NCBI GenBank assembly: GCA_031372565.1
Contig: JANMLN010000052.1
Span: forward strand, 1 to 23,669
From: Gemmatimonadota bacterium
GTDB lineage: Bacteria > Gemmatimonadota > Gemmatimonadetes > Gemmatimonadales > Gemmatimonadaceae
Length of the DNA stretch: 23,669 nucleotides
Direction of reading: 5' to 3'
The notes beneath the pieces were generated by a model that had not been told where the DNA came from, made no database searches, and saw only the letters and a program-made list of their open reading frames with translations. Both the position numbers and the translations under genes were made by a program. Position 1 is the stretch's first letter. Every line of letters starts with the position of its first letter. Positions 4,470 to 23,669 of this stretch are shown in pieces.

Positions 4470-4488
4470 TCGGGTCAAGGAGGGGCGC

Positions 4489-4915: not shown

Positions 4916-4933
4916 ATAGGGCATTTGCCCTAT
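4916..4933. promoter_or_regulatory. Palindromic operator ATAGGGCA-TT-TGCCCTAT upstream of the SARP/BTAD gene
   Basis: Perfect 8-2-8 inverted repeat; 15/17-identical copy at 19394-19410. Confidence 0.65.
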
Positions 4934-4968
4934 TGCCGGGCCAAGGAATCAATCGTTTGTTTGCGCTC

Positions 4969-5937: not shown

Positions 5938-8316
5938 TCAGGGCCGCAGCGTGAACGGCCTGCTGACTGCTTGCGCGAGTCCGGCGCCTTTCGCGACGAG
6001 CGTGTATTTCCCGGCAGCACCGGTGACCGTTACCGCGTCAAACGACACCGCCCCTCCCTTCGTCGTTCGGGTCGGTATACCCCAGATCGATCCGTCGGCA
6101 CGGTGCATTCCGAGCTCGAGCGAGACGGTGTGGCTGCCAACCGCAACCACCTTGCCTTGCGCGTCGAGAACCTGCACCACCACCGCTGGCACGATCGGCT
6201 GCCCGGACGAAACGTCCGATGGCTGCTGCGCGAACGCGATGCGCACGGCAGGACTCGGCGCTCCAACGTCGAACGGCCGAGACTGCGTCGGCTGGAGCCG
6301 GGGTGATTCCGCTACCAAGACGGCGCCTGAGCCCGACTCCCGTACGGCCACCGTGGCGTCTGGGACCTTTCCGTCCCATCGAGCGCAGTACGTGCTCGAG
6401 CACGGGAGGAGGGGCAACTCCAAGCCGCCGACGAGTGTGGCACCGGAGGGACTGCTGAGCCGGAGCCGCACGCTGGCTTCAATGGGCTTGACCCATTCGT
6501 TGCCAATGCTGTCGGCCACGGCGACCTCGATCACGGGCAGTTGTGCACCGGCTCTGACTCCCGAACCGAGCACGCCGTCCGGAGACGGACCATTGCCGTG
6601 CCACACGAGCTGCGTCGCTGGACCTCGAGCCTGCGTCCACCCTACGGCCGCGCCGCTCAACCCGTCCGATGAGAACAGCAGCCGCGAGATGTCACCGGAC
6701 GCCACGCGTTGACGAAATCCGGACAACGAGAAGGTCGCCACGCCGCTCACGGCTCGCACGGTCGGTCCGACGGTGGTGCCCGTACGGGCGAGCGGGTACC
6801 CCGCCTGCCCCGGCTCGGCCACGGCTTCGCTGAATGGCTCCATCACCAGTCCCGTTGCATGTCGAGCGCCCATGCCAATGCTCGATGAGACCGTGACCGG
6901 GTTTGTCGCGCTTGCGGACCTCACCTCGTTTCCATCGGCGTCGATCAATTGCACGCGCAGCACGCCACTGAGTGGCACACCCGGCACCACGGTGGGCATC
7001 GTGTCGAGCAGGCGCATGCCGACGGGAGGTCCGCTCACGGCAAAGATGCCGCTCGCTGCCGGCGCGAGCGTGCTGTCGTCCACGGCGATCGCGACCAGCT
7101 TGACGCCTGATCCTCGTGCCATGCTGACCAGGTTCCCGAATTCGGCAACGCCGTTGGTGGCGGTCACAGTCGTCGTCCCGCCGAGGCCGGCGGTTCCGGT
7201 CGCCGCGATGGAAATGCGTGTTTTCGCCGTGGCGATCGTTTGCCCCGCGCAATCGTGCACGGCGACACGGGGCGGCGGGTTGAGCACGGCATGCGCGATG
7301 CTCGGCGCCGGCTGCGTGACGAAGGCGAGACGACATGGGACCGGGGCGGTCGTGTTGCGGTACCGGACGAAGCCGAGGGCGCCAAGCGCCATCACGCCCG
7401 CCACCGCCAACCAGCGTCGTTGCGCTCGTGCGCCACGTGCAAGGCTCGCCCAGGCGATCGCCGGTCGCGCGGGGGCATGGCTTGCCAAGGCGCGAGCGAA
7501 GGCATCCACGGAGGGAAAGCGTTCGGCGCGGGACTTGGCGAGGGCACGCCTGATGGCCGCGTCAACGGACACCGGCAGTTCCGGATGCACGGCGCGCACG
7601 GACGGTGGTGCCTCGCGGAGGTGCCGAGCTAGCACATCCTGCGGAGCCGCGCCCATGAACGGCGGCGCTCCCGTGAGCAGTTCGAACACGACGCAAGCCA
7701 ACGCATACTGGTCCGCCCGGCCGTCGAGGCGTCGGTCAGCGCCCACCTGCTCGGGACTCATGTAGGCCGGCGTCCCCATGGCGACGCCGGTGCTCGTGAT
7801 GCCGTCTGCGTCGGGGGAGCGCTCGATGAGCCGCGCAATCCCCAGGTCCGCTATGTAGGCCCGCCCGGATTCATCGAGGAGGATGTTACCGGGCTTGATG
7901 TCACGGTGGACCACGTTGTGGTCGTGCGCATGGCGGAGCGCCGCGGACACGTCGGAGGCGATCTGACGGGTGCGCTCGAGGGACTGGGGCCCTTCGCGGT
8001 CGAGCAGGTCACGGAGCGATCCACCCTCCATGAACGGCATGACGAAGTAGATGAAACGTCCTTCGCGTGCCCAGCGGAGAATGGGCACCACGCCGGGGTG
8101 ATGGAGCTGGCTCGCGATCTCGATTTCGCGGGTGAAGCGGAGGGCGTCACCGTCGGCGACGGGGTCGTCGAAAAAGACCTTGACGGCGACGGCCTGATTG
8201 GTGGCGCGGTCCACGCCGCGATACACGCGGGCGCGTGGTCGCGCTGCGATCTCGCGATCGAGGGTGATCGCGGGCGCGAGGAGCTGGTCGAGGAGGGAAC
8301 GGAGGGCGGCGGTCAT
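5938..8316 (-). CDS. Membrane Ser/Thr protein kinase with extracytoplasmic Ig-like repeats
   Basis: VAVK, HRDIKPGN, DLG, GTPAYMSPE, DQYALA; TM segment WLAVAGVMALGALGFV; about four beta-rich repeats (e.g. RLAFVTQP...GVAEF, RIAFAQQP...GAVSF). Confidence 0.92.
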   Translation of the reverse strand: MTAALRSLLDQLLAPAITLDREIAARPRARVYRGVDRATNQAVAVKVFFDDPVADGDALRFTREIEIASQLHHPGVVPILRWAREGRFIYFVMPFMEGGSLRDLLDREGPQSLERTRQIASDVSAALRHAHDHNVVHRDIKPGNILLDESGRAYIADLGIARLIERSPDADGITSTGVAMGTPAYMSPEQVGADRRLDGRADQYALACVVFELLTGAPPFMGAAPQDVLARHLREAPPSVRAVHPELPVSVDAAIRRALAKSRAERFPSVDAFARALASHAPARPAIAWASLARGARAQRRWLAVAGVMALGALGFVRYRNTTAPVPCRLAFVTQPAPSIAHAVLNPPPRVAVHDCAGQTIATAKTRISIAATGTAGLGGTTTVTATNGVAEFGNLVSMARGSGVKLVAIAVDDSTLAPAASGIFAVSGPPVGMRLLDTMPTVVPGVPLSGVLRVQLIDADGNEVRSASATNPVTVSSSIGMGARHATGLVMEPFSEAVAEPGQAGYPLARTGTTVGPTVRAVSGVATFSLSGFRQRVASGDISRLLFSSDGLSGAAVGWTQARGPATQLVWHGNGPSPDGVLGSGVRAGAQLPVIEVAVADSIGNEWVKPIEASVRLRLSSPSGATLVGGLELPLLPCSSTYCARWDGKVPDATVAVRESGSGAVLVAESPRLQPTQSRPFDVGAPSPAVRIAFAQQPSDVSSGQPIVPAVVVQVLDAQGKVVAVGSHTVSLELGMHRADGSIWGIPTRTTKGGAVSFDAVTVTGAAGKYTLVAKGAGLAQAVSRPFTLRP

Positions 8317-9306: not shown

Positions 9307-12150
9307 CTACGGAAGGGATGCCGGCGACGGGCTCAGTTGAAGTCCATTTCCGGTCGCGCCATTGCCGAACGCGCCGTATCCGGCCGCTCCCCAGCACCAG
9401 ACGTTGCCATTGATACCGAGAGAGCATCCGTGATACAGCCCTCCAGCAATCGCAGCGTTCGGTCCACCGGCCGACTGGCCGACTGGGTTCGGCAGGCCAT
9501 AGCCACCGGCGACGACGCTCACATTGCCAACGCCGAGCTCGGCCTCCACGTTGTTCCCCCAACACAGCGTTGATCCGGTCGTGGTGATTCCGCACGTCGT
9601 GTATGTTCCCGCGCCGAGCGCACTGAACAACGCGACGGTATTCGCCTTGAACGGCAGACCCGCGCTTGCGCCTTGGGGAAAGCTGGACGTTCCGATCTGC
9701 GAGTAGTCGTTCGAGCCCCAGCACCATATCTCCTTCGCCGAGGAGAGACCGCAGGAATGGGTCGCTCCAGCGGTGAGCGCGGTGAAGATGATTCCACCAT
9801 ACACGGGCTTGTTGGCCTGCGTTCTGAGAGCCGTGAGCGTGGAATCGCCGAACTGACCACGATCACCAGCTCCCCAGCAAAGCGCAGCGCCGGCGGTGCT
9901 GATGCCGCACGCATGATTTCCTCCCGTAGCGACGGCAGTGAACGTGCGCCCAGGATTGCTCAGCACCGGAACGGATCGGGTTAGCTGCGAACCATCGCCA
10001 AGTTGACCGGACGCGTTCAACCCCCAGCAGTACAAAGCCCCTGATCCCGTCGCACCGCAGGTGAACGAACTGTTGTTACCCGAGAAGATGTCCGCGAAGC
10101 GAATGCCACCCACGACCGCCTTGGGCAGCGGCTCCGACGCCGTGAAGGAGCCCGTGCCTACCTGTCCATTCGCATTGCTACCCCAACAGTATGCGGTGCT
10201 GTCGGACGCAAGCGCGCAGGCATGGTTAAACCCGACCGCGATCTTGGTGAACACCAAACCGCCACCGCCCGCCTGCCCCGGAAACTGCAGCCCACCTCCG
10301 ACTTGTCCAGGGAAAGGGCGGTTCTGCACGAGCGAGCCGTCGCCGACAAACCCATTGGGCCCGTAACCCCAGCAGAATGCTTCGCCAGTCGTACTGAGCA
10401 CGCAGGCGCCATATCCCGACGATCCTAGTTGCTTGGCAACTCCGACGTTGATCGTCAGCGGACTGGCAGCAACGAAGGCAGATGACGCGACGACAGAATT
10501 CGTGCTCACTGTTCCACCAAGCGTCCAACTCGACAATTGCGCGATCCCACCTCCATCCGTGGGCTGCGTTGCGCCCGTCGCGACGCCACCACCGGCGCTG
10601 ACGGCGAAGACCACCGGCGCACCCACCACGACATTTCCAGCGGAGTCCTTCACGAGGACACTCGGCGATGTTGGCACGGAACTGTCTGTTCGTCCGAGCT
10701 TGCTCACATTGGCGAGGACGATTGTTCCCTTGACCTGTGCAGTGGCTGAAAACGTGATCGGAGCAACGGGCACGCCGCTGGCGGTCGCCGTCAAGGAATT
10801 CGCTCCCATGACATTCCCGAGCTTCCAGGCGCCTACCGCCGCGCGACCGTTCGCGAGCGTAGTCGTCGTCGGGGCGGTCAGTTGCCCGCCGCCGGACGTG
10901 ATCGCGAACGTGACACTCACCCCTGCGACGGGATTCCCCAGCGAGTCCGATACGACCACCGTCGGCGCCAGCGGGACCGCGCTACTTACGAGCGCATTCT
11001 GCTGGTCGCCCTGGCTGATCACGATCGCGCGGGGGGGGCCCGCGATGCCGCTCGCGGTAAAGGTCACCGTGGTTCCGCTGGCAGCTTGCGCCTGCAGCAC
11101 ATTTGCGCCAGCCGCGTTGCCGAGGCGCCATGCACCCAACGCCGCGGCTCCGCTGGCGGTCGTCGTCGCCGTCGCACCGGTCAACACGCCGCCGCCCGTT
11201 GTGACGCTGAAGTTGATGGTCGCGTTGGCAACGGGATTTCCGAACGCGTCCATTGCCATCACTTGAGGGGCAACGGGCAACACCGAACCGGCGACGGCTG
11301 TCTGGGCATCCCCGGCTGCCTTGGTGAGGGTCGCGACCGGCCCCGCCGTCGCCGTCGCCGACATGGTCGCCGAAAGGCCCGCGAACGCGGGCACTGCCAC
11401 CGCCAATCCCTGCCCACCGATCCCCTGCCCCAGTCGCCACGCTGTCAGGATCGCGACGCCGGTCGAACCTGTTGTCACAGTCGCCACCGTGTCGAACGCT
11501 CCAGAAGGAATTGCCTGTACCAATCCACGGAGTGCGCCCGTTCCGGTTGTCGTGAATCTCACCGCGACGCCGGGCACCACGTTTCCGTAGCGATCAGTCA
11601 CCCTGACTGTTGGGGCGGTCGCAACCGCGGCGGCCACCGCTGCGCTTTGCCCGCTCCCGGCTGTCACGACGACCGCCGCCGGGACCTGTGGCGCAATGGT
11701 AGCCGTGGTGGCCACGAACACCCGGCTTGCGTCAAATGCCGTCACGGTCAACGTGTCGCGTCCCACGAGCGTGTCCACGCGCCATCCGGTGATGGTCGCG
11801 ACACCGTTCGCGTCGGTTGTGACCGTCTGCGCCGGAAGTTGGGCCGCTGTGCCGCTCCGGGCCTTCACGGTCAGCAGCAGGTTCGCCCAAGGGACCGTGG
11901 CCGTATCCACGATGCGGATCTTGATGTCCGCCGCAGTTGTGCCCGCCGCGACCACCTGCGCGTCCCCTTGCACAGCCGTCACCTGTCCGATGCGCCGGAA
12001 CGCCACCAGTCCCGTGATGTCTGCTTGACAGGAACCAAGCGTGACGAGGGCCGCGACGCCAGCGAGACGCAGAAACCCGCGCCGCGCGCTTGACCAGCCG
12101 ATGCGCGATGTCAACAACGTTGCCTTTGTGCTCCTCGGCTTGAGCCGCAT
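9307..12150 (-). CDS. Probable lipoprotein with about five bacterial Ig-like repeats and a 7-blade RCC1/BLIP-II-like propeller
   Basis: ARRGFLR, hydrophobic stretch, LGS-C41; repeats GDAQ/GSGQ/GDQQ...D..GNPV..V.F...W.LG; seven C-x9-CWG repeats at the C-terminus; SD AAGGAG lies inside the upstream gene's end. Confidence 0.88.
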   Translation of the reverse strand: MRLKPRSTKATLLTSRIGWSSARRGFLRLAGVAALVTLGSCQADITGLVAFRRIGQVTAVQGDAQVVAAGTTAADIKIRIVDTATVPWANLLLTVKARSGTAAQLPAQTVTTDANGVATITGWRVDTLVGRDTLTVTAFDASRVFVATTATIAPQVPAAVVVTAGSGQSAAVAAAVATAPTVRVTDRYGNVVPGVAVRFTTTGTGALRGLVQAIPSGAFDTVATVTTGSTGVAILTAWRLGQGIGGQGLAVAVPAFAGLSATMSATATAGPVATLTKAAGDAQTAVAGSVLPVAPQVMAMDAFGNPVANATINFSVTTGGGVLTGATATTTASGAAALGAWRLGNAAGANVLQAQAASGTTVTFTASGIAGPPRAIVISQGDQQNALVSSAVPLAPTVVVSDSLGNPVAGVSVTFAITSGGGQLTAPTTTTLANGRAAVGAWKLGNVMGANSLTATASGVPVAPITFSATAQVKGTIVLANVSKLGRTDSSVPTSPSVLVKDSAGNVVVGAPVVFAVSAGGGVATGATQPTDGGGIAQLSSWTLGGTVSTNSVVASSAFVAASPLTINVGVAKQLGSSGYGACVLSTTGEAFCWGYGPNGFVGDGSLVQNRPFPGQVGGGLQFPGQAGGGGLVFTKIAVGFNHACALASDSTAYCWGSNANGQVGTGSFTASEPLPKAVVGGIRFADIFSGNNSSFTCGATGSGALYCWGLNASGQLGDGSQLTRSVPVLSNPGRTFTAVATGGNHACGISTAGAALCWGAGDRGQFGDSTLTALRTQANKPVYGGIIFTALTAGATHSCGLSSAKEIWCWGSNDYSQIGTSSFPQGASAGLPFKANTVALFSALGAGTYTTCGITTTGSTLCWGNNVEAELGVGNVSVVAGGYGLPNPVGQSAGGPNAAIAGGLYHGCSLGINGNVWCWGAAGYGAFGNGATGNGLQLSPSPASLP

Positions 12151-12152
12151 GG

Positions 12153-14189
12153 CTACTTCTTCTCCTTTGAAAGTCGGACGACAATCGGATCGTCGGTACG
12201 CGTCGTCTGCACGTCGGGAGTCTGCAGCCGTCCGCTGGCCTTCACGACGTAGGCGGGCAAGCGCTCGGCGAGATAGCTGCGCAGGTTGGAGAGCCGGATT
12301 TCTCCGCTTCCGTTCGCGTCGGCCGCACCGCGGAGCGCGTTCATGAGGAAGTACGAGAACGCGCCATGCTGTTCGTCGCGATTCCAGCTCGCGAACTCCT
12401 TGCCGCCGGCCGCAGTGATCACCACGGCATTGCGGATCTGCGCGATAGGATTGTTGACTTCGAGGATGGCCGAGGTCGCGCCAAACACGCTGCCCCCGTC
12501 GGTCTGGCCCGAGAAACAGGCATCGAGCGCGATGAACACGCTGCGTGGCTTCACGGCGGCGAGGGTGGCATACAGCTGCTCGACGGGGTAGCCCTCCGTC
12601 GCGAGGTAGGCCGGATCCACGTCCACCGGGAGGAGATACGCCTGCAGGTCGCCCTGCGTCCCTCCCGCACCTGCCCGGGAGCCTGGCGCCCCGTGCCCGG
12701 AGTAGAAGATGTACACGTCGGTGGCAGCGGCACCGCCCATTCGTGTAGCCAACAGGCGGCCCAGCTGGCTTTCCTGCGGGTTTCCGCCTGCCCGTCCAAG
12801 CAGCCGTTCCATGCCACGGCCATCGAGATCGGCGTAATAGAGAATGCTCGACGAATCGATACCAAAGGCGCGCGCAAAGTACTGCCGCATGAAATACGCG
12901 TCACGCTCCGCGTACTCGACCTTGGGCACGCGCCGGTAGTCCCGGTTGCCGATCACCAGTGCGATCGCGTTCCGGTTGGGTGCCACGGCGACGGGGATAT
13001 CGCGATCCACCGCCGACAGCGGGTCGAGCGTCGCCACGGCCAGTGTCGTCGCGCGGTCACCCGTGAGCTCTTCTCTCACCAAGTCTTCGGGTGCGGACAC
13101 GGACAGAGTGGGCAACTGGCGATTGCGCTCCACAATCTGGCGGTTGCGGGCGGCGGCGCGTTCAAGCTCGTCGCGATCGCCTGCCAAGCCTTGCTTGACC
13201 TCCGCTTGCTCCGCCGCCCACTGACGAAGATCATCCAGCTTCCACTGTGCCAAGCGGCCGTCGTACGTGGACTTGTCCGCATTGTAGGCCTCCAGGCGAC
13301 CAGTGTGAGCCCGTGCGGACAACCACGCCTGAAGAAGCCCGACGCCAAGCCCGGCACCGGCCGCCAGCGTGGCGGTGCAGCCGGTGCCCTTTCCGAGATC
13401 CACGCTGGAGCCCGCTGGCACGAGCTGTCCGCGGACGTAGGCATCTTGAGAGAAAGTCCGCGAGTCCACGCAGCCCACCGACGGCAAGAACGCTGCCGTG
13501 GCGTATCCTGCGCCCGCGCCGAGTAGCCCCCAGATGACCGCGCCTGTCCATGCGCTCCCGCGCACGGGCTCGATCGGCGCGAGGGGAGGTGCGGTCACCT
13601 GCCGGTATCGGGAGAGAATGCCCTGCGACTCCGCGATGTCCGCAGCGCTGCGAATGCGCGGCAGCGGAAGGGTGTCGCGCCGGAGCTCGGCCGTCACCTT
13701 CACTGCCTGACCTCGAGAGATACTGACACGGCGTCGCACAGAGTCAGCGCCGCTGCGGAGGTCAATGGCTCCGCCCTCGGCGCCCACCGCGAAGTACCGC
13801 AGCGAGTCGCGGAGGGTACCGTAGTCACGAGCTGCGAGCCTCAGCTGTACGCCCATGGGCGTCGCCGCAATGCGCACCCAGGCGCAGCTACGCCGATACA
13901 GATGCAACACGTCCTCGGCTGCGGACCGTCGTGTCGGCGCCCGCTTCACCTGAGCCCGAAGGCTGTCAGAGAGTGCTTCAAAGTCGAACGTGTCGCAGTC
14001 GGGCGGTGCGCCCTGCACGATGTCTATCGGCCGCGTGCCGGCCCGGAATGCGCCCATGACAGCGCCTACCGGCGACAACGTCACCTCCTGCGACCGGACT
14101 GGAGAACCCGTCAGCAACAAGGCCACGAGAAGCCCGGAAGGCCGGAGGTGCGCGCTGGTCAAAGGCCGCTGTGGGAGTGAGTAGTTCAT
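12153..14189 (-). CDS. Caspase-like (peptidase C14) domain protein with signal peptide and Gly-rich hydrophobic hairpin
   Basis: AIALVIGNRDY, FYSGHG (His), LDACFSG (Cys), HGAFSYFL..ALRGAADANGSG; start ATG 14189 with GGAG 6 nt upstream. Confidence 0.9.
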   Translation of the reverse strand: MNYSLPQRPLTSAHLRPSGLLVALLLTGSPVRSQEVTLSPVGAVMGAFRAGTRPIDIVQGAPPDCDTFDFEALSDSLRAQVKRAPTRRSAAEDVLHLYRRSCAWVRIAATPMGVQLRLAARDYGTLRDSLRYFAVGAEGGAIDLRSGADSVRRRVSISRGQAVKVTAELRRDTLPLPRIRSAADIAESQGILSRYRQVTAPPLAPIEPVRGSAWTGAVIWGLLGAGAGYATAAFLPSVGCVDSRTFSQDAYVRGQLVPAGSSVDLGKGTGCTATLAAGAGLGVGLLQAWLSARAHTGRLEAYNADKSTYDGRLAQWKLDDLRQWAAEQAEVKQGLAGDRDELERAAARNRQIVERNRQLPTLSVSAPEDLVREELTGDRATTLAVATLDPLSAVDRDIPVAVAPNRNAIALVIGNRDYRRVPKVEYAERDAYFMRQYFARAFGIDSSSILYYADLDGRGMERLLGRAGGNPQESQLGRLLATRMGGAAATDVYIFYSGHGAPGSRAGAGGTQGDLQAYLLPVDVDPAYLATEGYPVEQLYATLAAVKPRSVFIALDACFSGQTDGGSVFGATSAILEVNNPIAQIRNAVVITAAGGKEFASWNRDEQHGAFSYFLMNALRGAADANGSGEIRLSNLRSYLAERLPAYVVKASGRLQTPDVQTTRTDDPIVVRLSKEKK

Positions 14190-14203
14190 GCGAAGCTCCA
14201 CGC

Positions 14204-15769
14204 CTACCGGGGGATGGGGATGATTTCGGGTGTCTCACGCTGGAATTGCGGCATCGTCTCACCGACATCGGCTCCGACGTACGTCGGGTCACTCACGATC
14301 CAGCGCACGCCGCTCACGATCAGGGCATCGCCGCTCGTGTCGTCCGTGAACCGGACCGCCGTGGCCATATGCGTGGAGTACAGGACGCCGACCACCTCGC
14401 GATGCATGAGCTCCCGCACGAGCGTGGCGAAGAGGACTGCACGGTCCTCGCAGTCCGAGAACGGATAGAACAGCGTCTCGTCAACGGCGAAGGGCTTGTC
14501 TTCACGTCCGAACTGCTCCATATCCGTCGCATATGCGAACGCGCTCTGCACGAAGCGGATGAGGATGTTCGCCGCGTCGCGCTCGGAGCGCCCAGCAATC
14601 AACTGGCGCAATGGCGGAAGCAATGTTGCACGAGCCTCATCCGACATCCCGAGGCCGAACCACACGAACCAGTCCACCTGCGGGAACCACTCGAGGTACC
14701 GGACGCGTGCGACATTGGCCCGAATCGTGATCTCGTGTCGCGCATCCCCGTGCGTCCAGCGCAGAGTGCGCGTGCGCGCGGAGTCTCCCAACTGCGGAGT
14801 CTGGCGGATGGCGAGATTCGCAATGCGCGGCGACGCATCGGATGCTTCGCGGTACGTGCGAATCATGCCCGGTGCTTCCAGCGGCGGTCCATCGTCCAAG
14901 TTGAAGACGCCAAAAGCGCGACCGTCAATGTCATAGCTGGCGACGCGATACACGCGCACGTTCGACGGCAGCAGGAGCACCACGGAACCTGACGCCCCTT
15001 CGCCCGAGAGCGCCACACGCGCATCCAGGCCACCGCGCCGAAGGAGGTACCATGTGACAAGGCGGGTGTTGGCCTCATCGGGCGAGAGCTTGCGCGCCAG
15101 CCGGTATGCAAGACGTGCGAACCCGAAATCGTCGAGGGCGAGCTCTCGCATCTGCGCGTCGAGATCCTCGAGAAGCGGGCGAAGGTCGGCCTTCGTCAAC
15201 TGCTCGTAGAAGGCCGCGATGCCGGCCTGCGTAAGCGGAGCAGCAACACGTGGCAGCCGACCAGGCACGGTGCGCACACGGGCGTCGGCGCCGTAATAGT
15301 CGGGCTCCAGCACTTGCCGTGCGCTCACGGGAAGCGCAGGCGCCGCTCGCGGGCCGACCAGCGTAATGGTCGGCGTCGGCGTGAGCGGGGCCTCCGGCGA
15401 GGTCATGCGTACGCCGGATGGTTCGGGCAGCGGCGTCATGACGATATCGGGGGCCTGCGAGGGACGTTGGCGCAGTGACACGGGCACGCCGGCCGACCCA
15501 CCAGCGGCCGACGAGAGCGAGTCAGCCTCCGGGGCGTGCGGGAGTGCCCTCGGCTTCGGACCGCGATAGCCACTCGACGCACGGAGCACGCGAAACGCCG
15601 ACCACTCGCGCTGCAGCAGCCGAATGAACGCGCTGTCTTGGCTCGCAACGAATTGATCGAAGTTGCGCCGGCCGTCGCGGCGAAAGCGCTCGAACGACGA
15701 GTCTGCCTGAGCCCCAAGGGAAGTCGTGGCCGCCGCAAGACAGGCGACAGCGCGCAGCGTGCGCCTCAT
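14204..15769 (-). CDS. Exported transglutaminase-like (Cys-His-Asp) protein
   Basis: Signal peptide MRRTLRAVACLAAATTSLGA; C-terminal SDCEDRA, THMATAV, SDPT triad; ATG 15769 overlaps the upstream stop (ATGA). Confidence 0.75.
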   Translation of the reverse strand: MRRTLRAVACLAAATTSLGAQADSSFERFRRDGRRNFDQFVASQDSAFIRLLQREWSAFRVLRASSGYRGPKPRALPHAPEADSLSSAAGGSAGVPVSLRQRPSQAPDIVMTPLPEPSGVRMTSPEAPLTPTPTITLVGPRAAPALPVSARQVLEPDYYGADARVRTVPGRLPRVAAPLTQAGIAAFYEQLTKADLRPLLEDLDAQMRELALDDFGFARLAYRLARKLSPDEANTRLVTWYLLRRGGLDARVALSGEGASGSVVLLLPSNVRVYRVASYDIDGRAFGVFNLDDGPPLEAPGMIRTYREASDASPRIANLAIRQTPQLGDSARTRTLRWTHGDARHEITIRANVARVRYLEWFPQVDWFVWFGLGMSDEARATLLPPLRQLIAGRSERDAANILIRFVQSAFAYATDMEQFGREDKPFAVDETLFYPFSDCEDRAVLFATLVRELMHREVVGVLYSTHMATAVRFTDDTSGDALIVSGVRWIVSDPTYVGADVGETMPQFQRETPEIIPIPR

Positions 15770-16725
15770 CGCGAGGACTCGTGCAGCACCACCTCGAACG
15801 GCAAGTCGAGGAGCGCGCGCTCGTTCAGGGGAATCTCCACCAGCCAACGCTCGAATTCCATTCGCCCCATGCGGAGCCCGTCCAGTTCGCGCGGCGTCTT
15901 TGCGCGCTGCCATCGTTCCGGAGGCGCGACGGGCCGCTTTGTCGCAAGAGCCACGATCCACTGCATTTCGCGCGCGCGACCACTCGCGCTCCTGGCGGGC
16001 CAGTTGAGCCGCCACTGTCGCTGTTGCGCCGCGCTAGGGAACGTGAAGGTCGTCCCGCCTTCGACTTCCGGAGCGGACTGCATCTGGTTCGGGACCACGA
16101 ACTCCGCGGAGTCCCCAGTGATCTGTATGACGTAGAGGTGCGAGCGTGCGGACGGCGTCACGCGCACCTCGATACTGTCGCCGCGCACGGCGTCGGTCCG
16201 TCCCTCGAACACCTGTCGGTTGAGGCTTGCCGACACCCGGAACGAGAGGTCCGCCGTCCCACGTTCACGAGTGACCGTTGCTCGGATGCGCACCCGACGA
16301 CGGGTGGCGCCGGGAGCGCCATCACTCGATGACAACACCTCGTCCGCGAGCACCTCGAAATCGGTCACGCGGCCGCTCGTGAACTCCCTGATGCTGCGCA
16401 TGTAGCGCGAATCGAAGTGTTCTGAATCTGCCGACACCCGCAGATCGGCGCCGGCGGTCAGCCTGGTGCCGACCACCATGCGCACGGCCTCGAGGCGTGC
16501 ATCGCGCAGGGCGTCAACACGTGCCTGATCTGGCGACCTGTCTCCCACGAGGGCGATGGATGCCTCGGTCTCGACCACGCACTTCGCGGCAGACTCGGCA
16601 CACGGACCCACGAAGCGCGCGCGCCCGAGTCCCCCTCGCACCGGAGCCTCCTGTGCGCTGAGCTGCCCCACTGCCCGCGCGGTCATCGCCACAGCGAACA
16701 CCATTCGAGCCGCAGGCGTCGTCAT
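15766..16725 (-). CDS. Exported protein with FlgT-N/LPP20-like N-domain and DUF4384-like C-domain
   Basis: Signal-like N-terminus ending LSA-Q; DQARVDALRDARLEAVRMVVG helix; GDSIEVRVTPSARSHLYVIQI...VVPN...GTTFTFPS resembles DUF4384; ATG 16725 overlaps the upstream TGA. Confidence 0.65.
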   Translation of the reverse strand: MTTPAARMVFAVAMTARAVGQLSAQEAPVRGGLGRARFVGPCAESAAKCVVETEASIALVGDRSPDQARVDALRDARLEAVRMVVGTRLTAGADLRVSADSEHFDSRYMRSIREFTSGRVTDFEVLADEVLSSSDGAPGATRRRVRIRATVTRERGTADLSFRVSASLNRQVFEGRTDAVRGDSIEVRVTPSARSHLYVIQITGDSAEFVVPNQMQSAPEVEGGTTFTFPSAAQQRQWRLNWPARSASGRAREMQWIVALATKRPVAPPERWQRAKTPRELDGLRMGRMEFERWLVEIPLNERALLDLPFEVVLHESSR

Positions 16726-17324
16726 CAAGGATTGCCCGACTGGTCATCGTTCGCAATGGAGCCGCCCTTGAGTCCCGTGCTGATCAGCTCCGCCCACGCC
16801 TTTGCGTCCTTGACCTTCGTATACAGCGCATTGTTCGCCTTGATCTTCCGGATCATGTCCTCCGCGATGGGACCGATCGGCATCTCCATGAGGATCCACG
16901 CCCGAAACTGCCCCTCCTCACGCTTGACCTCCTGCTCCCGGACGCGCGCGTTGCGCACGAACTGGTCTACCTCGGCGGTCATCATGCGCTCGAGCGTCTG
17001 TCCTAGGTTGTTCCGGGCAGACAGGCCGGCCTGCTTGATCGTGGCCGACGAGAAGGTCTTGACGCGGGCCTGCAGACCTTCCGCTAATCGTCGGCGCGCG
17101 CTGAGTTCGGCGATCTCCACTGCAACGTCCATATCCGGCGACAGGGCGGTCGCCGTGACAAGCAAGTGATTCTCCTCCTTGGGAATCTTCGCGTACCACT
17201 CCGGGATCTCTGCGAGATCGCCGTTACGGGGCAGTCCCTTGGATCGCGTGGAGTCCTGTGCAGTCAGTGTCGCGGTGCTTCCGAGCGTAGCCAGTATGAC
17301 GAGGCCAGCGATCGCGATGCGCAT
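16725..17324 (-). CDS. LPP20-like exported protein
   Basis: IPEWY...TATALSPDMDVAVEIAELSARRRLA...RVK pattern resembles LPP20; signal peptide; ATG 17324 with GAGGA SD. Confidence 0.65.
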   Translation of the reverse strand: MRIAIAGLVILATLGSTATLTAQDSTRSKGLPRNGDLAEIPEWYAKIPKEENHLLVTATALSPDMDVAVEIAELSARRRLAEGLQARVKTFSSATIKQAGLSARNNLGQTLERMMTAEVDQFVRNARVREQEVKREEGQFRAWILMEMPIGPIAEDMIRKIKANNALYTKVKDAKAWAELISTGLKGGSIANDDQSGNP

Positions 17325-17354
17325 GGTTTTCCTCAAGGGGTGGGGGGGATGTGC

Positions 17355-19067
17355 TCAGGGACAGTCGAACTGGGCGCTGATCGTCGTCGCGATCTTGGCC
17401 TGCGCAGTTCCGGCTCCAATGCGCTGCGCATGGGAAAGGGCGCGACACGCCGACTCGTGGTCGCCCAGAAACGCGTGAGCGCGGACCGAGAAGAGCAGCA
17501 ACTGCGCGGAGTCAGCGCTCGTCGCGACGCGTGGCAGTGCCGCGCTGATGCTGCGAAGCGCGGCCCGCAGGGCCACCGTGTTCGACGAGTCACGGGTCTG
17601 CCGATCAATGGTGCGCAGCGCAGGGGGCGCGTTGAAGGGCTCAGCCATCGTGACGACCGCGTTCTTCGCTGGCTCGCCGCGTGCCCGAGTCGTCGTGGGA
17701 GGCTGATCGCCCTCCGCTCTCTCGGGAGCGGGGCCGCCATTCCCCTGTGCCAACCCTGGATTGCGAGCCGTGCCTGCCGCCTGTTGGGGAGAAGCGCTCT
17801 GTGGCGGCTCCGGTATCGACGCGGCAGGAAACGCGCTGCTGGCGCCAACTGGTTGCGTCGGCGTGGATGGTACGCCTCGGGCAAGGTTCCATGTGAACGC
17901 GGCGCCCGACATGAGCACGAGCCCAACGACGCCGACGAAGAGAAGTCGGCGTACGTGCGTCGGCCCTGCGCCATCGAGCTGCAGAAGGTCCTGCCCGCTC
18001 GGGGTTGTCGCGATCTCTACTCCAGCGCTCTGGTGCGCAGCGACGACTACTGTCGGCGCATCCTGCCGCGCCGCCGCGATGGAGACGGCATCGCAGAACT
18101 CTCGTGCGAAGGCAGCAATCGACGCGAAACGATCCTCTGCGCGCCGTGCGAGCGCTCGAGCGAGCGCAGCCTCGAGCCCCTCGGGCCAGTCCACCAGGGG
18201 GTTCACTTCGCGGAGCGACATCGGAGCGCCGGTCGTTCGGCGGACAAGCGTGTCCGCGAGCGTGGCACTCGCCGGGAATGGCAGCTTGCCCGTGAGTGCG
18301 AGGAAGGCGACCAGCGCGAGCGCGTACTGGTCCGCGGCCACCCCGACCGTCAGCCCCTCTATCTGTTCCGGCGCCATGAAGTCCGGCGTACCGATGATCT
18401 GCCCCGTGGAGGTGACCAGTTGGCTATCCCGTCCGGTTGCCTTCGCGATTCCGAAGTCGATCACCTTCACCCGCCATCCGTCGTCGTGTGGGCGCACCAC
18501 GATGTTGTCGGGCTTGACGTCGCGGTGAACAATGTCGGCGTCGTGTGCCGCCTGGAGGCCAGCTGCGGCTCCGGAGATGACATCCCCGACTTGCCGAGCT
18601 GTGAGTGTTCTTTCGACCACCAGATCCGTGAGTGGGACACCCTCGACAAGCTCCATGACGAGGTACGCACGTCCGTCCGTCGAGTCGCCGCTGTCGATTA
18701 CGTCCGCGACATTCGGGTGGCGCACGCGTGCGAGGTTCTTGCCCTCGCGCATGAAACGTCGCATGGCATTTTCGTCGCTCACGAGACTCGCATGCACGAA
18801 CTTCACCGCACAGTCGCGTTCGAACTTGATGTCGAACGCCGCGAATACCTCACCCATTCCACCGGCGCCGAGCCGCCGGTCGAGTCGGTACCGATCGGCC
18901 AGCACCATTCCGAGCATCCCGTTCTGCCGAGGAGATCGCAGGGTCGCGCCATGGGTTGGACAGAAGCTCGCCTCGCGAGGGAACGAGTGTCCGCACACCG
19001 AACATGTTTGCTGTACTACGGCGGCATTCGGACCCTCATCGTTGCTCGGTGTGTCTCGGTCGGTCAT
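17355..19067 (-). CDS. Membrane Ser/Thr protein kinase with N-terminal zinc ribbon
   Basis: CSVC...FCPTHG ribbon; LGAGGMGEVF, CAVK, HRDVKPDN, DFG, GTPDFMAPE; TM LLFVGVVGLVLMSGAAF; Pro/Ala linker and small helical C-terminal domain. Start ATG 19067 after GAGGGTGG; the ORF extension to 19418 looks non-coding. Confidence 0.92.
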   Translation of the reverse strand: MTDRDTPSNDEGPNAAVVQQTCSVCGHSFPREASFCPTHGATLRSPRQNGMLGMVLADRYRLDRRLGAGGMGEVFAAFDIKFERDCAVKFVHASLVSDENAMRRFMREGKNLARVRHPNVADVIDSGDSTDGRAYLVMELVEGVPLTDLVVERTLTARQVGDVISGAAAGLQAAHDADIVHRDVKPDNIVVRPHDDGWRVKVIDFGIAKATGRDSQLVTSTGQIIGTPDFMAPEQIEGLTVGVAADQYALALVAFLALTGKLPFPASATLADTLVRRTTGAPMSLREVNPLVDWPEGLEAALARALARRAEDRFASIAAFAREFCDAVSIAAARQDAPTVVVAAHQSAGVEIATTPSGQDLLQLDGAGPTHVRRLLFVGVVGLVLMSGAAFTWNLARGVPSTPTQPVGASSAFPAASIPEPPQSASPQQAAGTARNPGLAQGNGGPAPERAEGDQPPTTTRARGEPAKNAVVTMAEPFNAPPALRTIDRQTRDSSNTVALRAALRSISAALPRVATSADSAQLLLFSVRAHAFLGDHESACRALSHAQRIGAGTAQAKIATTISAQFDCP

Positions 19068-19393
19068 GAGTTCCACCCTCGCCTGTAGGTGTCCGCGCAG
19101 ACCGTTGGAGCGCTCCAGCTGAGGCATCGGGGGTAAGCCCGGTCGGCCTTTCCTGCTGAAGTTCCCTGAGCGCAGCGGCTTGCTCGCACGACCAGCTGGG
19201 ATCCCCGCACGTGAAGGGTCCCCAACCGGGCCGCTGGCGCCATGGATGTGCGTCGCGTCGGGAGGTTGGCGGTCGGCATGCCAGCGGCAATCGAGGGAAG
19301 CGAAGAGAGAATGCTCCTTGATCGAGGTCGCATTCGCGTAAACGGAAGGCCAACCTCGCACCGCACCGTCGCCCCGGCGTCGGCCATCCGCCC

Positions 19394-19410
19394 TAGGGCA
19401 TTCGCCCCAT
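19394..19410. promoter_or_regulatory. Second copy of the palindromic operator, upstream of the kinase/exported-protein operon
   Basis: TAGGGCATTCGCCCCAT versus TAGGGCATTTGCCCTAT at 4917-4933 (15/17). Confidence 0.55.
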
Positions 19411-19414
19411 ACCG

Positions 19415-19990
19415 TCACGCCGCCCCCTCGTCGTTCTGTCCCTCGCGCGCGAAGCGCTGCACCAGTTCGGCGCGCCGACGAATTCCCAGCCGCGCATGCA
19501 CGGCCTCCAAGTGCCGCCGCACGGTGGCGACTGTCACCCCCAGCTCTTCCGCAACCTCCCGGGTCGTGGCACCGCCGGCCATCAGGCGCCCCACCGTCAA
19601 CTGACGCGGCGTCAGTCGCCGCATGTCGGCCCGGCTCCGGTGCCGCCGCGTAGGCGGCGCGATGACAACCAACAGCGCGCCCGTGCCTGGCTCACCGCCA
19701 GCCGGGATCACGTGCAGCGTCTCGCCGTCCATATCCATCAGTGCGGTGGCGAGCGACAGCTCGTAGCCGGCCGCGTGCAAGCAGCGCTCGGCCTGCACGG
19801 CAAGCTCAGCCAAGCGCCGCCGGCTCAGGCGACGCCGGAGCGCGGGCGTCACATGCACCACGCTGCGGTCCACCACCAGCAGCGCCTCTCCGCCCGACGC
19901 TTCCAGTGCGAGCAGTGCGACGGTGACGGCGGCCGGTGCCGGCAGTGCCGACGTCGGGCGCAACGGGTGGGGTTTCGGTGAGGTGGCCAT
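19415..19990 (-). CDS. LuxR-family HTH regulator
   Basis: LTPRQLTVGRLMAGGATTREVAEELGVTVATVRRHLEAVHARLGIRRRAELV; N-terminal part may be a degenerate PAS-like region, no receiver domain seen. Confidence 0.85.
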   Translation of the reverse strand: MATSPKPHPLRPTSALPAPAAVTVALLALEASGGEALLVVDRSVVHVTPALRRRLSRRRLAELAVQAERCLHAAGYELSLATALMDMDGETLHVIPAGGEPGTGALLVVIAPPTRRHRSRADMRRLTPRQLTVGRLMAGGATTREVAEELGVTVATVRRHLEAVHARLGIRRRAELVQRFAREGQNDEGAA

Positions 19991-20201: not shown

Positions 20202-20229
20202 CGTTTCAGGAACGTTCTGCCAGCGTTTC
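20202..20229 (-). promoter_or_regulatory. Triple direct repeat with 11-bp period (SARP-type site), array 2
   Basis: CGTTTC 20202, CGTTCT 20213, CGTTTC 20224. Confidence 0.6.
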
Positions 20230-20890
20230 AACCTCCGGTCGCGCCGTCGGGCGGCGCGCTGTGGCAATCTCGCGTTGCCACCGAAGCACGTGCCAACAGC
20301 AACCGCGGCAACACCGCACTCCGCGTGTGCACCCGCAGCTTCTTCATGACGCCCTCCACGTGCCGCCGCACGGTGTGCACGCTCAACCCCATGCCTGCGG
20401 CGATCTCTCGATTGCGCGCCCCCTCGGCAACCTGAAGGGCAACACGCCCCTCGCGTGCGCTCAGGCCGTAGCGCTCGATCAGCACGGGCAACGTGGGCAG
20501 GAGGGACGCGAGCGACACAACCGGATCGAACGGCTCGTCGAGCTCGCCGGGAGTCGCCCGCACAAGACGCAGCGACGATGTGGAACGACGGGCCCCGACG
20601 GCTGTGGCCGCGGCGGTGGGGGCGACCGTATCCGCGGTGCCCAAACGGCGAGTTGTCACGGTAGGTGGTTCGTGCAGAGTGCTCACGGACCGTGCGGTAC
20701 AGTGCGCAACCATCGGCGGTCGCCCTGCCCGGCACCATCCTGGATCGTGGAGCGAGACCTCGTCGCCGTCACTCCACCCGTGCACGCCTGGCATCGTCGC
20801 CGTCGGCGTACTGGTTGCGCCGCGAACATGGCACCGCCAACGAAGGTACGGAAGGGCGGCCCGGCGGCTATCACGCAAAGGTGACGGCAA
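20228..20890 (-). CDS. LuxR-family HTH regulator (true start uncertain, probably well downstream of 20890)
   Basis: YGLSAREGRVALQVAEGARNREIAAGMGLSVHTVRRHVEGVMKKLRVHTRSAV; the N-terminal part of the ORF looks spurious. Confidence 0.75.
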   Translation of the reverse strand: MPSPLRDSRRAALPYLRWRCHVRGATSTPTATMPGVHGWSDGDEVSLHDPGWCRAGRPPMVAHCTARSVSTLHEPPTVTTRRLGTADTVAPTAAATAVGARRSTSSLRLVRATPGELDEPFDPVVSLASLLPTLPVLIERYGLSAREGRVALQVAEGARNREIAAGMGLSVHTVRRHVEGVMKKLRVHTRSAVLPRLLLARASVATRDCHSAPPDGATGG

Positions 20891-20960
20891 CGTGAGAACA
20901 GCGAATCACGATCCGACGCGGACGACTGAAACTCGCTGGCACCGAGAGCGCCTCTCTGGT

Positions 20961-20970
20961 GTTACAAGGC
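20961..20970. repeat. 10-bp direct repeat GTTACAAGGC, right copy
   Basis: Identical to 4901-4910. Confidence 0.45.
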
Positions 20971-20999
20971 GTCTCCCTGACCTCCGAATCCCGACTCCC

Positions 21000-21557
21000 A
21001 TGCATCTTTCGATTCGCCTGCTCGTCGCGACCGTGCTTGTCGCCGCTCCCGTGGACGCACAGCAACCAACCGGCCCCAAGGTCGGCGACCTCGCCCCCGA
21101 CTTCACCGTCACCGTGGCGGGCAAGGACGGCGTGAAGTCCGCCCCGTTCAAGCTCAGCGACGCCAAGGGGAGCACGGTCGTCATCGCCTTTTTCCCCAAG
21201 GCGCGCACCAGCGGCTGCACCATGCAGATGGAAGCGTATCGCGACCGTTACGCCACCCTCTTCAAGGACGGCATGAAGGTCATCGTGCTCGGCATCTCCA
21301 CCGACGCCGACACGACGCTGGCCAACTGGGCCACCGAGAAGAAGCTGCCCTTCGCGCTCGGCTCCGACATGGACGGCAAGGTGGGTCAGCTCTACGGTGC
21401 GTACATGCCCGGGCCGAAGATGGAGAATCGCCTCCTGTTCGTCGTCGGCCCCGATGGCCGCATCGCCTATGACGCCCGCCCGTTCCGCCAGGCGGCCGAA
21501 GAGGCGTACACGGCCCTCGGGGATGCCGTCGCCAAGAGCTCGGCCGGCGGCAAGTAG
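21000..21557 (+). CDS. Exported 1-Cys BCP/PrxQ-type peroxiredoxin (Cys paralog)
   Basis: Signal peptide ending VDA-Q; KVGDLAPDF; FFPKARTSGC = PxxxTxxC (C73, TGC at 21216); conserved Arg in ENRLLFVVGPDG; only one Cys. Confidence 0.92.
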   Translation: MHLSIRLLVATVLVAAPVDAQQPTGPKVGDLAPDFTVTVAGKDGVKSAPFKLSDAKGSTVVIAFFPKARTSGCTMQMEAYRDRYATLFKDGMKVIVLGISTDADTTLANWATEKKLPFALGSDMDGKVGQLYGAYMPGPKMENRLLFVVGPDGRIAYDARPFRQAAEEAYTALGDAVAKSSAGGK

Positions 21558-21655
21558 CGCGGCAACCGGCGCCCGATGTCTCGCGCGCTCAGGCTCGGGC
21601 GCTACCTTAGGGGATGTTCGAACCGGTACTCGACGTCCCCCCATCCGGAGCAGTC

Positions 21656-22246
21656 GTGACTCACGCTCGCATCACTACAGGCGCCGCCTTGGCGGCCGCT
21701 CTCATGCTCGCCGCACTCCCCGCGCGCGCGCAGCAGCCGGCCGCGGCGCCCCCGCCGCCGGTGTCCATGCTCGGGCAAGTGGCCCCCGACTTCACCCTGC
21801 CATCCGTGACGAAGGACGGCGGCAAGGTGCGCCCGTTCCATCTGGCCGAGTACAAGGGCCAGACCGTCGTCCTCTTCTTCTTCCCGAAGGCACGGACCAA
21901 GGGCTGAACCATCCAAGTGGAGGCGTACCGTGATCAGTACGCCACGCTCTTTCACAACGGCGAGAAGGTCGTTGTTGTGGGAATCTCCGCCGACCCGGAC
22001 AGCACGCTGTCTGCGTGGGCTGCGGAAAAGAACGCCCCGTTCCGGCTCGCCTCCGACCCCGAGGGGAAGGTGATCAGCCAGTACGGCGCATGGAACGCGG
22101 ACGGCAAGTACGCCAACCGGCACACGATCATCGTTGGACCGGACGGCAAGATCGCCTTCGAGCAGCGCCCGTTCCGGGTGACAGCGCAGGAGGCGTACAC
22201 GGCGCTGGGTGAGGCCGTGGACAAGCTCGCGCCGCGAGGCAAGTAA
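21656..22246 (+). CDS. Exported BCP/PrxQ-type peroxiredoxin, probable selenoprotein (UGA 21905-21907 = Sec84)
   Basis: FFPKARTKG-TGA-TIQVEAYRDQYATLF aligns without gap to FFPKARTSG-C-TMQMEAYRDRYATLF of the upstream paralog; the frame stays open to TAA 22246; GTG start after GGAG gives a signal peptide ending ARA-Q (alternative ATG at 21614). Confidence 0.88.
21917..21945 (+). promoter_or_regulatory. Putative bacterial SECIS hairpin
   Basis: GGCGTAC (21922-21928) pairs with GTACGCC (21937-21943); loop CGTGATCA has G at position 2 and starts 21 nt after the UGA; stem can extend GT/AC across a 3-nt bulge. Confidence 0.65.
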
Positions 22247-22265
22247 GGCCCGACTTCGGACGCAT

Positions 22266-22295
22266 GCCCGGCGAGCGCCCCGTTCGCCGGGCTTT
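22266..22295 (+). terminator. GC-rich hairpin with short U tail after the peroxiredoxin pair
   Basis: GCCCGGCGAGCG-CCC-CGTTCGCCGGGC (12-bp stem, one G-U) followed by TTT; the tail is short, so termination may be weak. Confidence 0.5.
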
Positions 22296-22316
22296 CCATA
22301 TGCCCCGCCCGACGCC

Positions 22317-23669
22317 ATGACGCCGAGCGCCGCCGAGTTGTTGATGGAGATCTACCGCGCCGCAGTCCGAGGCGCGGACCCGGGTGTCGCCGTGCGTGAG
22401 GCGATCGCAGCGCAACCGTTTTCGCCGGACCGACGCCTCTGGCTGCTGGCCATCGGCAAGGCGGCCAACACCATGGCGACGGCCGCCGTTGCCACACTGG
22501 CGGACCAGGGGATCACGATCGCGGGGGGCGTGGTCGTTGGCGCGCACGCGGAGCTGTCGCCGCACGCCGAGATCGAGACGGCCACGGGTGAGCATCCGCT
22601 CCCGGGCATGCAGTCGCTCAAGGCGGCTGAGCGGATCGGCACGATCGTGACGCGAGTGAAGCCCGACGACGAGGTGCTGGTGCTGCTGTCGGGCGGCGGT
22701 ACGTCACTCGCCGGTGCCCCCATCGATGGCGTCACGAGCGACGACCTGTTCGCGCTCAACGTGATGCTGCTCAACTCGGGCGCCGACATCATGGTGATGA
22801 ACGGCGTACGGAAGCGCTTCTCGCGCTGGGCCGCGGGCCGACTCGCGCGAGCACTGGCTCCGGCGCGCGTGCGCTGCCTGATCATCTCCGATGTGCACGG
22901 CGACGACCCGACCTTCGTGGCCTCCGGGCCGTGCAGCCCTGATCCGCTGTATGCAGCGGACTTGCAGACGCTGCTCGAGGACTACGAGCTGGACGCACGA
23001 CTGCCGCACAATGTGCGCACCGCCTTGAGCGCGATGATCGCGGGGAGCCGCCGCGAGACGCCCAAGCCCGGCGACCCGATGTTTGCGAACGTGACGCAGA
23101 AGGTGATCCTGGGCAATGCACAGGCGCTGCGGGCCGCGGCGGCGCGCGCGACCGAACTGGGGATTCGCCCGGTGTTCATCTCGCGCGATTCCATTCTCGA
23201 CAGCGCGGCGCGCACAGGCGACACGCTCGCCCGCGAGCTGATGACGTTCGCGGACAGCGGGTTGCGGCGCGCGAACGATCCGGCGTCGTATGCCTGCATG
23301 CTCTGGGGCGGCGAGACCACCGTGGTGCTCGAAGACGGAGCGCACGGCATGGGCGGACGGTGTCAGGAGCTCGCGCTCGCCGCCGCGCGCACGCTGCATG
23401 GAGCCGGGGCCAATGCGCACGGTGTGTACCTGCTGGCCGCGGGCACCGATGGTCGCGATGGGCCGACGGATGCGGCGGGGGCGATCGTGGATGGGTCCAC
23501 ATGGGCGGCGATGAAGCGCGCGGGACGCGACCCGGAGCGGGATCTTGCGCAGCATGACGCGTTTCCGGCGTTTGATGCCGTGGGGGCGCTGGTGCGCACC
23601 GGACACTCAGGGACGAATGTGCGGGATGTCGTGGTGGGGTTGGTGCAGCCGAACCCCAAACGGGCCCAC
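22317..23669 (+). CDS. Glycerate kinase type 2 (GckA/TtuD-like, DUF4147+MOFRL), truncated at window end
   Basis: Translated by hand from ATG 22317: AIGKAA, GEHPLP, LLSGGGTSL, ISDVHGD, ASGP, GGETTV, GGRCQE, GTDGRDGPT, TGHSGTNVRD; no stop inside the window, hence missing from the ORF track. Confidence 0.92.
   Translation, partial: MTPSAAELLMEIYRAAVRGADPGVAVREAIAAQPFSPDRRLWLLAIGKAANTMATAAVATLADQGITIAGGVVVGAHAELSPHAEIETATGEHPLPGMQSLKAAERIGTIVTRVKPDDEVLVLLSGGGTSLAGAPIDGVTSDDLFALNVMLLNSGADIMVMNGVRKRFSRWAAGRLARALAPARVRCLIISDVHGDDPTFVASGPCSPDPLYAADLQTLLEDYELDARLPHNVRTALSAMIAGSRRETPKPGDPMFANVTQKVILGNAQALRAAAARATELGIRPVFISRDSILDSAARTGDTLARELMTFADSGLRRANDPASYACMLWGGETTVVLEDGAHGMGGRCQELALAAARTLHGAGANAHGVYLLAAGTDGRDGPTDAAGAIVDGSTWAAMKRAGRDPERDLAQHDAFPAFDAVGALVRTGHSGTNVRDVVVGLVQPNPKRAH

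Follow-up and report, generated by a model that had tools for sequence, protein, structure and literature searches.

Does the TGA codon at positions 21905–21907 of a Gemmatimonadota contig end a gene, or is it read as an amino acid within one? The question is raised by a 23,669-nucleotide (nt) stretch of DNA (GenBank assembly GCA_031372565.1, contig JANMLN010000052.1; this whole stretch is referred to here as the window), in which two plus-strand open reading frames (ORFs), 21614–21907 (97 residues) and 21917–22246 (109 residues), lie in one frame and are split only by this TGA. An original prediction, made from the letters of the window, held that the two ORFs are same-frame halves of a single gene, and both the ORF coordinates and the read-through translation agree with it. 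Drawing on the codon, its conservation in relatives, the selection acting on both of its sides, a constrained hairpin downstream of it and the fold of the protein, we conclude that positions 21656–22246 very probably hold one intact gene for an exported peroxiredoxin with a single active residue, and that this peroxidatic residue is selenocysteine (Sec).

Reading frame and selection across the TGA

When translation begins at GTG 21656 and the TGA is read as U, the full-length gene (21656–22246, plus strand; 196 codons followed by TAA, with one in-frame TGA) yields 196 residues in which U84 is the sole recoded step. This product contains zero Cys, as the original prediction had said of a 196-residue protein with no Cys elsewhere. 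The likely ribosome-binding site, a GGAG at 21647–21650 on the same strand, lies 5 nt 5' of the GTG, judging by sequence, and no spaced Shine-Dalgarno sequence precedes the alternative start at ATG 21614. The nearest relative, at locus L001, carries a Val codon at the N-terminal position that matches GTG 21656, and its protein is 83% identical to the window protein over residues 1–196, a span that includes the TGA. A promoter and terminator scan of positions 20850–22400 gave no match.

The read-through protein matches the Pfam family AhpC-TSA (PF00578) with 108.3 bits (E 3.1e-31; cut-off 26). Immediately upstream, on the same strand, lies a tandem Cys paralog (21000–21557, 185 residues), and the TGA at 21905–21907 aligns with its TGC at 21216–21218, which bears out the claim that the TGA occupies the C position of a PxxxTxxC motif for which the adjacent paralog has TGC. 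The resulting active-site motif, P77-K-A-R-T81-K-G-U84 (PxxxTxxU), spans 21884–21907 on the plus strand. P77, R80, T81, and C84 are each invariant in alignment A3, which comprises 116 full-length Cys-type sequences (115 database proteins and the window read-through with C for U). In the downstream half, the conserved catalytic Arg of peroxiredoxins is present as Arg155 (CGG, 22118–22120, plus strand) and is invariant in alignments A1 and A3, so that the catalytic Arg region is kept there, as had been proposed. Taken together, the read-through translation, the paralog alignment, and the Pfam match uphold the view that a single peroxiredoxin gene crosses the TGA, and positions 21656–22246 are almost certainly a genuine gene and not the product of a chance TGA. 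No other gene among 13 in the window has an internal in-frame TGA.

To follow this codon in relatives, species-representative genomes were scanned; 599 stretches matched, 338 of them encode a relative, and the best 80 of the 338 were taken as loci L001–L080. The proteins at these loci are 45–83% identical to the window protein, and 79 of the 80 loci are labelled Gemmatimonadota (as Gemmatimonadetes, Gemmatimonadaceae, Gemmatimonadales or Gemmatimonas), L066 being labelled "bacterium" only. By local tblastn, the codon aligned to residue 84 is TGA at 77 of the 80 loci and TGC at three (L047, L050, and L074), a count that is enriched for the Sec clade and is not a family-wide Sec:Cys ratio; of the two patterns used in the scan, one ([MV]EAYRD[QK]Y) sits directly 3' of the TGA, over the hairpin described below, so 77/80 overstates the Sec share of the whole family. 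Alternation between TGA and TGC at this codon, which had been put forward as a check, is thus seen, and the TGA is not unique to one assembly. When the 115 database proteins of A3 were compared with the read-through cores of the TGA loci, not one contained such a core, and the idea that an annotated U-version lies hidden among these "Cys" proteins was rejected.

The window and the 80 loci together provide 82 copies of the gene, 78 with TGA (the window and 77 loci) and four with TGC (three loci and the window paralog). The frame stays open for 110–119 codons past the site in 82/82 copies, and the mature part lacks Cys in all 82. We compared the rates of nonsynonymous (dN) and synonymous (dS) substitution among the 78 TGA copies by the pairwise Nei-Gojobori method, a pair being usable if 0 < dS < 2. 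The median dN/dS is 0.203 upstream of the TGA (2050 of 3003 pairs usable) and 0.275 downstream of it (2545 of 3003), so that the purifying selection expected downstream of the codon is indeed found there. Between the window and L001, the downstream part has a dN of 0.077, a dS of 0.509, and a dN/dS of 0.15.

These values and the open frames do not fit a pseudogene or an assembly error, in which a nonsense mutation or a miscalled base would have broken the gene and the Cys paralog would do its work. A working Cys paralog does adjoin the gene, and annotation pipelines do regard the gene as defective. Against this, 77 further species genomes, drawn from numerous independent assemblies, have TGA at this codon, the part downstream of it is under purifying selection, no further stop or frameshift is present in any of the 78 TGA copies, and selection maintains the hairpin that follows the codon. 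An explanation by gene decay or sequencing error has almost no chance of being right.

How the gene appears in protein collections bears on a further explanation. With the read-through product as query (U entered as C), a protein search identified 548 relatives at E ≤ 0.001, and six of the 120 relatives listed are only 108–112 residues long, cover only the C-terminal 54–56% of the query, and start at the Met or Val before EAYRDQYAT, where the first start codon past the stop lies. When the C-terminal fragment was used as the query, at least 250 clusters were found at E ≤ 1e-20. The 120 fragments listed, the best of these clusters, have 102–117 residues each; none has Cys and none is named a selenoprotein, their names being peroxiredoxin or redoxin domain protein, and the JGI name being peroxiredoxin Q/BCP. 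The C-terminal ORF of the window is itself present in the collection as a separate protein, and with at least 119 further fragments of 102–117 residues entered in the same way, the expectation that pipelines would split the gene proved correct. One fragment, P0160, has 117 residues, matches none of the 80 loci, and lies on a contig of 5,116,566 bases; from this contig, a near-complete chromosome carrying the TGA form probably exists.

The AlphaFold2 model of the full-length protein, built with 116 sequences, has a mean predicted local distance difference test (pLDDT) score of 90.9, with values of ∼98 at residues 41–190 and of 53–71 at residues 1–30. In the model, residue 84 is placed in the first turn of helix 82–93 of a thioredoxin-type fold. 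Fold comparison with the PDB gave at least 500 matches at E ≤ 0.001, and all of the matches listed are peroxiredoxins. The predicted fold is that of a 1-Cys peroxiredoxin of the AhpE/BCP type. With no second Cys in the protein, an oxidised selenenic acid would have to be reduced by an outside partner.

If the UGA were a true stop, the locus would have two products, an exported peptide of 83 residues and a 109-residue protein translated from GTG 21917. Gene callers do predict the C-terminal ORF, and an ATG or GTG start follows the TGA in 119 of the 120 fragments listed, directly before EAYRDQYA. However, the break would fall inside what is modelled as a single thioredoxin-fold domain, between the active-site strand and helix, and the C-terminal part alone would have no signal peptide, no Thr81, and no redox residue. 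In addition, the full-length Cys forms, too, have the Met or Val codon (in A3, conservation of M88 is 90% or more), so the Met or Val that follows the TGA is an internal residue like any other. Nor does it have a Shine-Dalgarno sequence of its own, since the bases in question are a conserved spacer. We regard separate translation of the two halves as extremely unlikely.

A predicted signal peptide covers residues 1–25 (21656–21730, plus strand), with a basic start, an Ala/Leu-rich core, and the sequence A-R-A followed by QQ. An uncharged hydrophobic 12-mer is found at the N terminus in 79 of the 82 copies. The signal peptide named in the original prediction is consistent with these sequence features and with the disordered N terminus of the model, and we retain it as a predicted feature.

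A hairpin under nucleotide-level constraint

Bacterial Sec insertion sequence (SECIS) elements, as the relevant passages of PMC1088965 describe them, are stem-loops that follow the UGA directly and have a small, G-containing apical loop. A candidate of this kind is present at 21922–21943 on the plus strand, starting 14 nt downstream of the TGA. It consists of a 7-bp stem (21922–21928 with 21937–21943) and an 8-nt loop, CGUGAUCA (21929–21936), which is small, contains G, and belongs to a hairpin directly after the UGA, in agreement with that description.

The hairpin lies within a block of 11 codons (codons +3 to +13 after the TGA; 21914–21946, plus strand) with frozen synonymous sites. The median dS among the 78 TGA copies is 0 in this block, versus 1.35–1.43 in its flanks. 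Within it, CAA, TAC, CGT, GAT, and CAG are each used in 78/78 copies and GAG, GCG, and GCC each in 77/78, whereas two to six synonymous codons are in use at the neighbouring positions. Three of the fixed codons, CAA, CGT, and GAT, are minority codons, with usage of 0.19, 0.12, and 0.29, respectively, in 13 genes of the window, the sequence of which is 67% G+C.

Pairing of the stem is complete, at 469 of 469 cells in 67 distinct rows, and 0 of 500 shuffles reach the observed pairing values. Only three stem variants occur, all of them paired; L020 and L070 change both sides of the stem and L052 gives a G-U pair. The covariation thus comes from three variant sequences of an element that scarcely varies, and the frozen synonymous sites are therefore the main argument for the hairpin.

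The TGC copies provide a comparison in which the peptide is retained. EAYRDQYA is encoded unchanged at the three TGC loci, and EAYRDRYA by the window paralog, in both cases with different codons. In these four copies, five to six of the seven stem pairs are left and the loop is altered, and the folding energy is −2.4 to −7.0 kcal/mol compared with −10.3 kcal/mol for the window hairpin. The same peptide is therefore encoded where the hairpin has decayed, which shows that it is the RNA, and not the protein, that is constrained, and that this is so only in the copies with TGA. Based on these results, the downstream SECIS that the original prediction called for has a candidate at the expected place and under nucleotide-level constraint. 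No Rfam family matches the window at gathering scores, the hairpin included. A match to a long noncoding RNA family on the opposite strand within 21500–22400 has an E value of 6.2 and was dismissed as chance.

The sequence inspected for further elements amounts to ∼1.08 Mb, mostly syntenic, and consists of the window (23.7 kb) and of stretches of up to 20.6 kb around each relative. The loop 8-mer occurs 160 times in it; 79 occurrences have a full 7-bp stem, and 78 of those are the peroxiredoxin site. The 79th, on the minus strand at L029, falls within an ordinary ORF that has no TGA in frame, and a case with a 5-bp stem at L078 is a plain stop codon; both were rejected. By this search for loop and stem, no second selenoprotein gene was found in the 1.08 Mb (a case with a 4-bp stem at L057 was not inspected).

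Decoding of the UGA codon

The proposed mechanism begins when a ribosome arrives at UGA84. The hairpin 14 nt downstream would serve as a bacterial SECIS and recruit SelB with Sec-tRNA(Sec), and Sec would be inserted where translation would otherwise terminate. The N-terminal signal peptide would direct the protein across the inner membrane. There, the selenolate, predicted to sit at the first turn of helix 82–93 near Thr81 and Arg155, would reduce peroxides and become a selenenic acid, which an external reductant would recycle, the protein having no resolving Cys.

Several observations weigh against this reading. No SelA, SelB, or SelD was found by Pfam among 20 window proteins, and tblastn with the E. 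coli K-12 SelA, SelB, and SelD proteins gave no match at E ≤ 1e-3 in the window and the 80 loci. ARAGORN, applied to the window and to 60 of the 80 loci, found no tRNA of any kind, and a local tRNA run over all 81 sequences, which is the sole cover of the last 20 loci, found none. Gemmatimonas aurantiaca T-27, the phylum's only member in a 2016 census (PMC5029168), is entered in supplement file 1 of that census as negative for SelD, SelA, SelB, YbbB, YqeB, and YqeC. To these points are added the enrichment of the TGA count by the scan pattern, the few sequences that provide covariation, and the lack of a matching Rfam family, all described above, as well as the nature of three parts of the reading: export by the Sec protein-translocation pathway is something we infer from sequence and model, and so are the peroxidase activity and the external reductant. 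As for the sel genes and tRNA-Sec, the inspected sequence is small and syntenic, so their absence there says little.

The same observations are the ones on which a recoding event that bypasses the Sec machinery would draw. In that case, the hairpin would promote read-through of the UGA, either by insertion of a standard amino acid (Cys or Trp, for instance) or by a route that does not depend on SelB. The missing sel genes and tRNA-Sec in the ∼1.08 Mb, the negative result for the sole surveyed genome of the phylum in supplement file 1 of PMC5029168, and a hairpin that matches no curated RNA family all speak for it. On the other hand, what was inspected of each genome is a very small, syntenic portion, and Sec use is patchy within phyla, so that one negative genome is weak evidence. 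A UGA at the catalytic Cys, together with a close, small-loop hairpin that contains G, is the classic signature of Sec in the terms that PMC1088965 uses for these elements, and the peroxiredoxin family has proven Sec members. Moreover, the enzyme would be inactive if its peroxidatic residue were Trp or some other residue without redox chemistry, yet purifying selection acts on the gene. Based on these considerations, read-through with a standard amino acid or without SelB is very unlikely. We also consider it very unlikely that the TGA-carrying genomes have no SelA, SelB, SelD, or tRNA-Sec and that the hairpin drives an undescribed reading of UGA at the catalytic position. Genome-wide reassignment of UGA was ruled out, since six of 13 window genes end in TGA. 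Insertion of Sec through SelB thus remains the reading that we prefer.

Known relatives, the tandem paralog, and evolution of the family

Sec-peroxiredoxins are among the commoner bacterial selenoprotein families, according to the pertinent sections of PMC1088965, PMC5029168, PMC9312934, and PMC13188914. Of the family defined by COG1225/Bcp, PF00578, and a TxxU motif, 43 genes are reported from Sargasso Sea data in PMC1088965, and 91 genes in 78 organisms are tabulated in the 2016 census (Table 3 of PMC5029168); the family is also listed in reviews from 2022 (PMC9312934) and 2026 (PMC13188914). As portrayed in these sources, the bacterial family resembles the window protein in belonging to the same Pfam family, in having Sec at PxxxTxxU and a hairpin after the UGA, and in having widespread Cys homologs. 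The main text of the four papers does not mention Gemmatimonadota, and a full-text literature search, judged from titles, abstract openings, and spot checks, found no report of Sec use in this phylum. The kind of protein is therefore known, and what is new is a member in Gemmatimonadota, a soil phylum that is little studied and for which no report of Sec use was found.

The window clade differs from the general family in having a predicted signal peptide, in having no second Cys, and in the replacement of the motif Pro in most Sec copies. The active-site Pro of PxxxTxxC is present in 116/116 sequences of A3 and in 4/4 Cys DNA copies, whereas it is kept in only 12 of the 78 Sec copies, the window included, and is replaced in the other 66 (by Phe in 33, Tyr in 27, Val in three, and Ile, Thr, and Ser in one each). 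Selenium may relax the constraint on the active-site pocket.

Among individual proteins, PrxU of Eubacterium acidaminophilum (NCBIfam NF040737) likewise has Sec at the peroxidatic position of a peroxiredoxin, and it is said to have been studied experimentally as a Sec-peroxiredoxin by Sohling et al. in 2001. The window protein reaches 54.8 bits with the PrxU model against a cut-off of 270 and is not a member; the model is also longer, at 233 positions. The best match of the predicted fold is AhpE of M. tuberculosis (PDB 1xxu and 4x0x), with a template modelling (TM) score of 0.88 on the target, a root mean square deviation of 2.3 Å, and 30% identity. AhpE, a 1-Cys peroxiredoxin, is also the second-best PDB match by sequence (E 8e-13) and shares with the window protein a single redox residue and the lack of a resolving Cys; it differs in having Cys for Sec, and its solved chains (153–164 residues) lack the ∼38-residue N-terminal extension of the window protein. 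BCP/PrxQ proteins (PRK09437; PDB 2ywn, 2cx3, and 3hjp) provide the best NCBIfam and the best PDB sequence matches, and the closest solved structure by sequence is a Sulfolobus BCP-like protein (E 4e-13). Many BCPs have a resolving Cys five residues after the active site; the window protein differs from them in having Glu89 at this distance. It also falls short of the BCP model (NF006960/PRK09437), the best of 10 NCBIfam matches, with 75 bits against a cut-off of 140, and none of the other nine reaches its cut-off.

The tandem Cys paralog has its own signal-like N terminus and a Pfam AhpC-TSA match of 96 bits (cut-off 26). It is 56% identical to the Sec protein (103/185, E 9e-69), and its closest relative is the protein P0007, at 82%. 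The paralog is absent from L001, and a second match is found at no other locus, so that among the genomes examined, it is, by sequence comparison, special to the window genome. Downstream of the Sec gene, a DUF4147/MOFRL gene (22317–23669, plus strand) runs off the window. A gene of this type lies directly downstream, on the same strand, at 32 of the 71 loci with at least 1500 nt of downstream sequence, and it is found beside Sec and Cys versions alike, including the Cys loci L047 and L074.

A quick, unrooted FastTree phylogeny of 196 rows (78 Sec and 118 Cys) requires at least five changes between Sec and Cys, two of which are forced by well-supported branches. In this tree, the window Sec gene and that of L001 group first with the Cys protein P0003 (support 97) and next with the window paralog and its relatives (98), and the two stand apart from the remaining Sec copies. 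The hairpin is nevertheless identical base for base in both Sec groups. This shared hairpin, together with the occurrence of Sec and Cys versions at the same locus, argues for the direction from Sec to Cys. The simplest reading of these sequences would be that Sec is ancestral and that repeated one-base changes from TGA to TGC were followed by decay of the hairpin. A 2006 study, in its Table 1 (PMC1794560), infers the opposite direction for other peroxiredoxins, with five Cys-to-Sec events and no Sec-to-Cys event. The Sec-peroxiredoxin family is widespread in Gemmatimonadota.

Two genes for LuxR/GerE-type regulators (19415–19990 and 20228–20890, minus strand) lie upstream of, and divergent from, the peroxiredoxin pair; homologs of both are found at L001 only. 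Farther away, positions 9307–19418 on the minus strand carry genes for an RCC1/Big_1 repeat protein, a caspase-like Peptidase_C14 protein, a DUF4384 protein, and a Ser/Thr kinase, a run that could be a signalling or conflict system. A second Ser/Thr kinase gene is at 5938–8316, with PIN (4159–4890) and BTAD (4933–5769) genes close by. Two minus-strand ORFs, 14204–16015 and 15766–16728, overlap by ∼250 nt, and no Pfam family matches the first of them; the mechanical ORF list has probably placed one or both starts wrongly.

For annotation, the finding means that at least 250 clusters contain no more of this enzyme than its C-terminal ∼110 residues and that no NCBIfam model accepts the full protein; a clade-specific model would put the annotation right in many genomes of Gemmatimonadota. 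For the family, the locus is a natural experiment on Sec versus Cys, with Sec and Cys genes adjacent in one genome and both versions at the same locus in relatives, and the loss of the motif Pro in 66/78 Sec forms versus 0/120 Cys forms could show the effect of selenium on peroxiredoxin catalysis. Many of the related genomes come, according to their records, from soil or groundwater samples, and an exported selenoenzyme would link the selenium supply of the soil to defence against oxidative stress at the cell envelope.

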